DNA from: Bacillota bacterium
GTDB lineage: Bacteria > Vulcanimicrobiota > SpSt-956 > JAKJGF01
Direction of reading: 5' to 3'
DNA length: 30,842 nt
NCBI GenBank assembly: GCA_022704525.1
Contig: JAKJGF010000033.1
Location: 1 to 30,842, forward strand
Positions within the stretch are counted from its first letter, which is position 1, and each line of letters starts with the position of its first letter. Of the stretch, positions 12,727 to 14,071 are shown piece after piece. Below the pieces are notes generated by a model. That model saw nothing but the letters and a program-made list of their open reading frames with translations. It searched no databases and was not told where the DNA came from. A program made the translations under genes and the position numbers.

Positions 12727-14071
12727 ACACCTTCTCTATATATCTTCTTATATAGTCCTTATCACCAAAATATTTAGAGAGAATCTTATAAATTTTTTCT
12801 TTACTTATGGGATGCAATTTTACTTCTTTATCAATAGGGTCTTCCCATGTGTCAACTACTGTTTCCATAATCTCTGCTACAGAGAGGGCAAATTGTTTAT
12901 TATTTTCAATGAATATGTCATAATTATCAAGTGTTCTGAAACCTGAATAATCTTCAAAATGGTCTATGTAATGTCTATCTTTTAAAGCGTAATCTATTAC
13001 AGAGTCATGACAGGTAATACGGAAATCCTTACTTCTTCGATAGAATTCAGTCTCTTTTTCTATAAATAGCTGCCCTAATACAAAAGATGTAAAGGTATGT
13101 CTTATACGGGATATATTTACAGCACATTCAATCATATCTTTTTCTTCAGTATCCGGTATACAGTAGAGAAAATTTGCTTTAAGAGGGATCTTATGCTCGT
13201 AGGCTTTCAAGGATAAGTTCACAGCTATCTCTGCTGAAATGCCTTTGTTTACAGGATCTTTTTCCCCCAGAAATTCATATCCTATATCCAGTATTCCCTT
13301 ACATTCTCCTATATCTTTCAGAAAATCCATAACCCAGATTTCAGGTCTTATAAATGTTACCCATCTGAAAATTACATCTGTTTTTTTTATAGAATTTAAT
13401 AAAATCCTTAAATGTTCCTTACCTATACTGGCATGTGACATATAAAAGGTTACTTCTTTATTTTGTACTGATTTCTTTATGTCTGAGGTAATACTATCCA
13501 TAGTTTCTGCTATTATATCTGCTCTTGATTCATTAAACTCTGTGAAATAACAGGGATAATTACTGTTATAAGTGCAGAAATAGCATTTACCCCAGTAACA
13601 ACCGTCAAAGGTTTTTATACTGAGTGAAATGTCACTGTTCATTCCTGGTAAATTATTAAGTAGAAAGTCAGTAAGTTTAAATTTGTATGAAGGATATTTT
13701 GTTTCTCTGTAAAAAGAAGGCACTTTTTTACCCATTAAAAGTTCTTTAAGAAAGTACTCTCCCGGCCCTGCCACAGTATGTGTAAAAAGAGGATTTTCTT
13801 CTATTACCCCGGGGCCTCCCACTACTGTAATTTTTCCATTTTTTCTGAAATTACAGAATAAATCCAGTATTTCCTTACTATCATGACCCCAGCTACTCAG
13901 GCCGATAATATTATAGGATGATGCAATATTTAAAATTTCATGTAAATTATATTTCTCTGATATTGCATATTCATCAGCTTTTCAACCATATTCTGACAGA
14001 TATCCATTTAAAAAAGAAACAGGACTTATGGAATTACCGAATTCTTCTGTGAGGATAAGAATTTTTTTCAT
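12713..14071 (-). CDS. B12-binding-domain radical SAM protein; the frame is interrupted by one in-frame TGA at 13982-13984
   Basis: The ORF-track piece 12713..13822 begins mid-domain (VVGGPGV) with no credible start. The same frame is open upstream to the ATG at 14071 (MKKILILTEEFG...), apart from a single TGA. This was checked triplet by triplet on the displayed sequence. The N-terminus looks like a cobalamin-binding Rossmann domain (ILIL...GLSSWGHD...KITVVGGPG). A Cys cluster CYWGKCYFC follows. No SD lies upstream of 14071. Confidence 0.5.

Follow-up and report, generated by a model that had tools for sequence, protein, structure and literature searches.

The interrupted frame and its surroundings

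The window, by which we mean the whole stretch of DNA that was analysed (30,842 nt, contig JAKJGF010000033.1 of assembly GCA_022704525.1, listed as Bacillota bacterium and placed by GTDB in the Vulcanimicrobiota), carries on its minus strand a gene for a radical SAM protein of class-B type, preceded by a partner gene on the same strand and facing a convergent homolog of the major vault protein (MVP). The radical SAM frame begins with the ATG at 14071-14069, ends with a terminal TGA at 12715-12713 and comprises 453 codons, and its sole internal stop is a TGA at 13984-13982, codon 30. An earlier reading made from the letters of the DNA alone (hereafter the sequence-only reading) had drawn attention to this TGA and to the 29 codons upstream of it; the frame was re-read, and both are as it described them. 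The features at the locus are:

12713..13981, minus strand: codons 31-452 and the terminal TGA, open and conserved
13574..13600, minus strand: cysteine motif C158-x4-C163-x2-C166 (CYWGKCYFC), invariant in all family members
13820..13822, minus strand: GTG codon 84, the first canonical in-frame start 3' of the TGA, without an SD
13982..13984, minus strand: in-frame TGA, codon 30 of the radical SAM gene, in the context GGT TGA AAA GCT
13985..14071, minus strand: codons 1-29, MKKILILTEEFGNSISPVSFLNGYLSEYG, which in the family model form strand beta1 and helix alpha1 of the N-terminal Rossmann-like domain
14082..14105, minus strand: GC-rich, terminator-like hairpin with a 9-bp stem and a 6-nt loop, z = -4.3, unique in the window
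14116..14790, minus strand: upstream partner gene, about 213-224 aa long, whose synteny with the radical SAM gene extends to every orthologous locus

There are 29 open codons on the 5' side of the TGA and 422 on its 3' side in a sequence of 36% GC, and since both open stretches align to orthologs that are single ORFs, the interrupted frame is beyond chance. Codons 31-452 encode the remainder of the Rossmann-like domain, then the radical SAM barrel and then C-terminal helices. No in-frame ATG, GTG or TTG occurs in codons 31-83, and it is at GTG 13822 that the 369-aa ORF starts, both in public annotation (OQA18327.1, HPZ08121.1) and in a mechanical listing of ORFs.

The identical TGA is found in all 16 further contigs that cover the site, namely five from JGI samples, seven from ENA analyses, three Logan assemblies of SRA runs and one from NCBI (GCA_002069435.1). 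Fifteen of these carriers are 100% identical to the window across the full 1359 nt, and the remaining one (L006) has a single SNP, at 13806. Moreover, gene callers in the carrier assemblies independently give a 45-aa ORF ending at the TGA and then a 369-aa ORF, and the 369-aa fragment matches exactly OQA18327.1 (bacterium ADurb.Bin363) and HPZ08121.1 (Candidatus Eremiobacteraeota bacterium). Since these 16 contigs derive from different samples and were built by different assemblers, an error of sequencing or assembly, which the sequence-only reading had kept among its options, is excluded as far as assemblies can show.

Nor does the genetic code of this genome accommodate a sense UGA. TGA terminates 10 of the 24 long ORFs in the window, including lepA, whose product matches the equivalog model TIGR01393 over positions 2-594 of 595, and it also closes other genes, the MVP-like one among them, where their ends are expected; global recoding (table 4 or 25) is thus ruled out, in agreement with the sequence-only reading. 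In a scan for single stops between long open stretches, only one other same-frame TGA was detected, at 4312; with a complete Beta_elim_lyase gene on one side of it and an unrelated CxxCxxCC gene on the other, it was dismissed as a further candidate for recoding. The window together with an additional 10 kb of this genome (L024), about 41 kb altogether, contains no other interrupted gene. Hence, the proposal that the TGA reflects either an error or a reassigned code, which has nothing in its favour beyond the prior probability attached to MAG data, is extremely improbable given the same base in contigs from different pipelines and runs, the many ORFs that end with TGA, and the lack of any other conserved gene with an in-frame TGA in these 41 kb.

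With respect to expression, a clear SD is present at many genes of the window; none is seen at the radical SAM start, and the GC-rich hairpin ends 10 nt before ATG 14071, two features that the sequence-only reading had recorded correctly. The orthologous starts also lack an SD, and in intact orthologs strong, non-homologous hairpins lie directly before or over the start (z = -5.5, -3.3 and -2.7). The absent SD and the hairpin before the start characterise the family, and they were rejected as signs of decay since intact orthologs share both. For the same reason, the suggestion that they make this gene specially dependent on the upstream gene did not hold.

The upstream partner carries the invariant motifs GKTFCNEG and GHGHVxTVRPG, whose Cys and His would fit a papain-like hydrolase; for the Tae4-like label that the sequence-only reading gave to this gene, the two motifs are suggestive only. 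Pfam searches with this protein at E up to 10 gave only noise, a PDB profile search gave no match, and a single-sequence model (pLDDT 38) was unusable. Its best promoter-like site is a TTTACA-17-TATAAT with TG at 14833-14805, about 14 nt before its ATG, which suggests a very short leader, and a variable heptamer array adjoins the -35 element of this site.

Enzyme family and orthologs

The window protein scores 17.5 bits against the Pfam Radical_SAM profile (PF04055), for which the cutoff is 29.5, and PF04055 matches were obtained in five of the eight family members (best E 4.6e-8). The B12-binding profile PF02310 had no match at E up to 1 in the eight members, and NCBIfam returned weak matches only, to B12-binding radical SAM families. 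A model of the ortholog P0003 predicted by AlphaFold with the family alignment (pLDDT 69, pTM 0.71, moderate confidence) shows an N-terminal Rossmann-like domain and a radical SAM barrel, like class B radical SAM enzymes, and its best 16 Foldseek matches in the PDB are all of class-B type (E 7e-10 to 1e-5), the structures matched being MgmA, TsrM, OxsB, TokK, CysS and AprD4. However, the family differs from class B in its CX4CX2C motif, where CX3CX2C is canonical, in having no PF02310 domain, and in a sequence identity of only 11-16% to these structures. The CX4CX2C motif is presumed to be the 4Fe-4S/SAM cluster site with non-canonical spacing; the confidence of the P0003 model is low at this segment. 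The name B12-binding radical SAM, used in the sequence-only reading, is therefore backed at the level of the class-B fold, with PF02310 missing, the Radical_SAM score of the window protein below gathering and the three invariant cysteines spaced as CX4CX2C, and the model supports a B12-binding-type radical SAM label for architecture and fold only. Among the fold matches, AprD4 is a precedent for a B12-like domain without B12.

A search for relatives found just eight among 5.8 billion clusters, and the gene family is a very small class-B-type radical SAM clade with CX4CX2C. It is always paired with the Cys/His protein encoded upstream and lies beside a bacterial MVP homolog, and this family arguably outranks the stop codon in interest.

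Seven intact homologs (P0002-P0008) of 457-477 aa align with the interrupted protein at 57-64% identity and 99% query coverage. Their sources are MAGs and metagenomes of Eremiobacterota/Vulcanimicrobiota, with the label Synergistia on one genome-collection locus, and all seven are single uninterrupted ORFs across the TGA column. In the orthologous loci, the radical SAM gene has an upstream same-strand partner of about 213 aa (57-67% identity) and, downstream, a convergent MVP-like gene of about 820 aa (85% identity) and lepA (83% identity); since all three are syntenic, the radical SAM loci are truly orthologous.

The sequence-only reading had pointed to the residue that orthologs hold at this position (Trp, Cys or Sec) as informative, and had left room for the two halves being separate genes. 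The residue is Lys in six of the seven orthologs and Phe in the seventh, with neither Cys nor Trp in any of them, and no stop was found in these relatives at the TGA column or elsewhere. In none of the seven are the two halves separate genes, so the reading as one gene stands. At the DNA level, the site reads GGT AAA AAA GCA in the orthologous loci L001-L004 and GGT TGA AAA GCT in the window; AAA to TGA takes two substitutions, and the route probably led via AGA (Arg). The model places residue 30 in the alpha1-beta2 loop of the Rossmann-like domain, which joins helix 17-28 to strand 32-37 and is distant from the cysteine motif, and the Lys/Phe variability at this surface loop indicates that the position should tolerate most residues.

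These comparisons bear on the idea that an N-terminally truncated protein is made from GTG 13822, or from a non-canonical codon after the stop, as the second of two separate genes. Every assembly is annotated accordingly, with the 45-aa and 369-aa ORFs, and codon 84 precedes the radical SAM core as well as the cysteine motif. But each of the seven orthologs has a single ORF of 457-477 aa, the conserved codons 1-83 form beta1-beta3 and alpha1-alpha3, so that a start at codon 84 would lose most of the Rossmann-like domain, and GTG 13822, unlike many genes in the window, has no SD. A truncated product is therefore very improbable.

Selenocysteine is less probable still, and ranks with error or recoding at the bottom of the scale. 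UGA is the Sec codon, and an AU-rich hairpin can be drawn from 7 nt downstream of it; as in bacterial selenoproteins, the in-frame UGA lies in an enzyme gene of an uncultured bacterium known from metagenome assemblies alone. In contrast to those proteins, the homologs have no Cys or Sec at the site, no SECIS-like hairpin lies 3' of the UGA, and the residue, Lys or Phe in the orthologs, belongs to a variable surface loop that is not catalytic and lies well away from the cysteine motif. The AU-rich hairpin is the best fold 3' of the TGA. Its loop spans 18 nt, and its stability does not exceed that of shuffled sequence (z = -1.08, with equal or better folds in 29 of 200 shuffles). An Rfam search of 12500-15000 at a permissive E-value returned only noise below the gathering score (miRNA and sRNA families), and no tRNA gene was found in the window. 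The sequence-only reading had already doubted selenocysteine and had described the long-loop hairpin as unlike a SECIS, and the Lys/Phe column and the fold statistics agree with it on both counts.

Age and consequence of the stop codon

If the gene had been dead for long, traces of decay would be sought in the rest of the frame, and none are seen. There is no second stop or frameshift in the frame (12713-14071), and neither relaxed constraint nor excess divergence was detected on either side of the TGA. Counting private changes at columns invariant in the other seven proteins gives 23 for the window protein and 41 for P0008, which is intact. When radical SAM divergence is divided by MVP divergence, the window gives 2.8-3.2 against the clade, and intact orthologs span 1.2-3.4 among themselves. 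Likewise, comparison of the window with L001-L003 (Nei-Gojobori, dS saturated) puts dN/dS at about 0.1-0.15 in codons 1-29 and at about 0.17-0.2 in codons 31-452, the values between intact orthologs being 0.17-0.29. The 29 codons upstream of the stop are 69-76% identical to those of the orthologs, above the gene average. Purifying selection has thus been normal on both sides of the TGA over essentially all of the divergence of the gene, and it follows that the TGA is either very young or not disabling; the results are compatible only with a young lesion or with a gene still in use.

The sampled population adds little time depth. Apart from the single SNP in L006, the carrier contigs show no substitutions over 5-7 kb of shared flank, and they differ in heptamer-repeat copy number and one 3-nt indel. 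They are essentially one clone sampled repeatedly, and for this reason polymorphism (pN/pS) cannot date the TGA. A full-length query against about 15 billion proteins found no intact allele of at least 90% identity, the best full-length match after the interrupted cluster being 64% identical. A wildcard-codon DNA scan of metagenome contigs for sense alleles first gave no matches, not even to the known allele, and a second scan gave only an unrelated chance match (L023), the scanned collection evidently being without these samples. That the TGA is the only allele sampled may therefore amount to one clone seen many times.

We consider a recent nonsense mutation, which leaves a null or severely hypomorphic allele and hence a young pseudogene, the best explanation, with a probability of roughly 60%. 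It was among the options of the sequence-only reading, and the intact orthologs and the reproducible TGA now back it. According to this explanation, codon 30, a variable loop position that most relatives fill with Lys (AAA), would have turned from sense to TGA while the rest of this class-B-type radical SAM gene, a single ORF, stayed intact. The sampling of a near-clonal Eremiobacterota population (bacterium ADurb.Bin363) would have yielded this allele and no other. If the UGA is an ordinary stop read by RF2, most ribosomes would release a 29-residue peptide; with the first canonical start at codon 84 and no SD there, efficient restart would not be expected, and the allele would be null or a severe hypomorph. 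Full-length enzyme would then arise only by basal readthrough by near-cognate tRNA-Trp, at the percent level. The recency of the stop, the loss of function and the AGA route are what we infer from the comparisons above.

One may argue that the gene is still functional and only turned down, with a low but useful readthrough of UGA by near-cognate tRNA-Trp, or by a tRNA-Trp variant that reads UGA more readily, placing Trp in a tolerant loop, and with the allele kept or tolerated since little enzyme is needed. The ORF is intact and its constraint normal on both sides, including the 29 upstream codons; the column is variable (K/F) and lies in the alpha1-beta2 loop; and the base after the UGA is A, whereas G follows six of nine genuine TGA stops here. 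In addition, bacteria are documented to read through UGA at a basal 2-6%: this is the leakiest of the stops, with readthrough of about 2-4% in E. coli (PMC10570021), and catA86-TGA in B. subtilis reaches 6%, as quoted by Belinky et al. (2021, PMC7918605), who argue that many in-frame stops do not mark pseudogenes. Bacterial tRNA-Trp variants that read UGA also exist (PMC13092985). However, persistence of the TGA through divergence has no support when all carriers are one clone, no relative has a stop at any position, no stimulatory structure lies downstream (z = -1.1), and no other gene in about 41 kb has the same feature. A 20- to 50-fold drop in yield early in a gene is also more simply understood as loss of function. 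We therefore regard a functional, turned-down gene as possible but on the unlikely side. Its stronger form, in which the UGA would be a maintained expression valve that holds a potentially costly radical SAM enzyme at trace level by readthrough with Trp, inserted by tRNA-Trp or by a variant tRNA that reads UGA more readily, the allele being under selection in this Eremiobacterota lineage, is somewhat more doubtful again. Because the frame is otherwise perfect, the constraint unrelaxed and the population clonal, a dead gene and a leaky one look the same here.

A recent nonsense mutation also fits what is known of such lesions, since in-frame stops are common in prokaryotic genes and mostly short-lived (Belinky et al. 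2021, PMC7918605). Like the stops in that survey, the one described here is a single stop in a conserved ORF, with sense codons in the orthologs, flanks without decay, persistence at the scale of a population or clone, and a leaky UGA as a possible route of residual expression. In that work, however, the criterion for function is a stop common to at least two species, and here the stop is not shared between species, so purifying selection after its origin cannot be demonstrated. The stop is real but ordinary, and it is within the documented class of prokaryotic in-frame stops (PMC7918605). Its practical consequence concerns annotation: the 369-aa "hypothetical protein" of OQA18327.1 and HPZ08121.1 is the 3' part of a 452-codon gene with a true nonsense codon, and these records deserve a flag as pseudogene or interrupted gene. 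If readthrough proved true, the gene would be one more natural case of UGA leakiness tuning enzyme dosage, a known idea.

Repeats and other genes of the neighbourhood

The remaining features of the window, with related arrays in two orthologous loci, are:

823-860, 19605-19624, 20506-20534, 25125-25146 and 25182-25218: heptamer arrays; also at about 5863-6000 in L001/L002
977-2566, minus strand: WD40 beta-propeller protein of 529 aa, matching many eukaryote-type propeller families and, below threshold, TEP1 propeller models
5865-6653, plus strand: 243-nt tandem repeat, 3.2 copies with 79% match, inside the ORF 5592-6680
8083-8102, 12610-12660, 12706-12723, 14841-14912 and 14933-15075: heptamer arrays
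10134-12614, plus strand: bacterial MVP homolog of 826 aa (MVP_shoulder E 1.7e-29, Vault_3, Band_7)
16349-17233, minus strand: SAM hydroxide adenosyltransferase / SAM hydrolase (DUF62, fluorinase-like), two genes upstream of the radical SAM gene
17248-17864, minus strand: MazF/PemK-family toxin gene (120 aa) and an upstream ORF (85 aa), with a 4-nt overlap
24388-24439: perfect 26-nt direct repeat in two copies, in an AT-rich spacer upstream of the 1238-aa ORF 20627-24343

Tandem arrays of 7-nt units (GTGAGAC, CTTCACG/GCGTGAA, TCACGCA, AGTGAGA, CTGCTCA) fill many intergenic spacers in this genome and its relatives, and resemble the heptanucleotide STRR repeats of cyanobacteria. Several genes end within such arrays, with the stop context TGA GAC G, and strains that are otherwise identical differ mainly in the number of heptamer copies (+7 to +35 nt at 14840). 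The flanking arrays of L001 stand in inverted orientation and form a long stem.

The MVP homolog shares 85% identity with its counterpart in relatives from the Eremiobacterota, and in every case it converges on the radical SAM gene; at 10500 it has a TAA indel of 3 nt that tells strains apart (826 vs 827 aa). The WD40 gene lies about 7.5 kb from it. The DUF62 gene had no tblastn match within the 13-kb orthologous loci L001-L003, and its linkage to the radical SAM gene is therefore probably incidental. The 85-aa ORF next to the MazF/PemK toxin gene, with weak DUF6364 and YlcI-YnfO matches, is probably its antitoxin. A Tricorn/PD40/S9 peptidase gene stands just past the end of the window (L024, 11742-13754), and the 243-nt tandem repeat corresponds to an 81-aa internal repeat in a 362-aa protein without a credible Pfam family.
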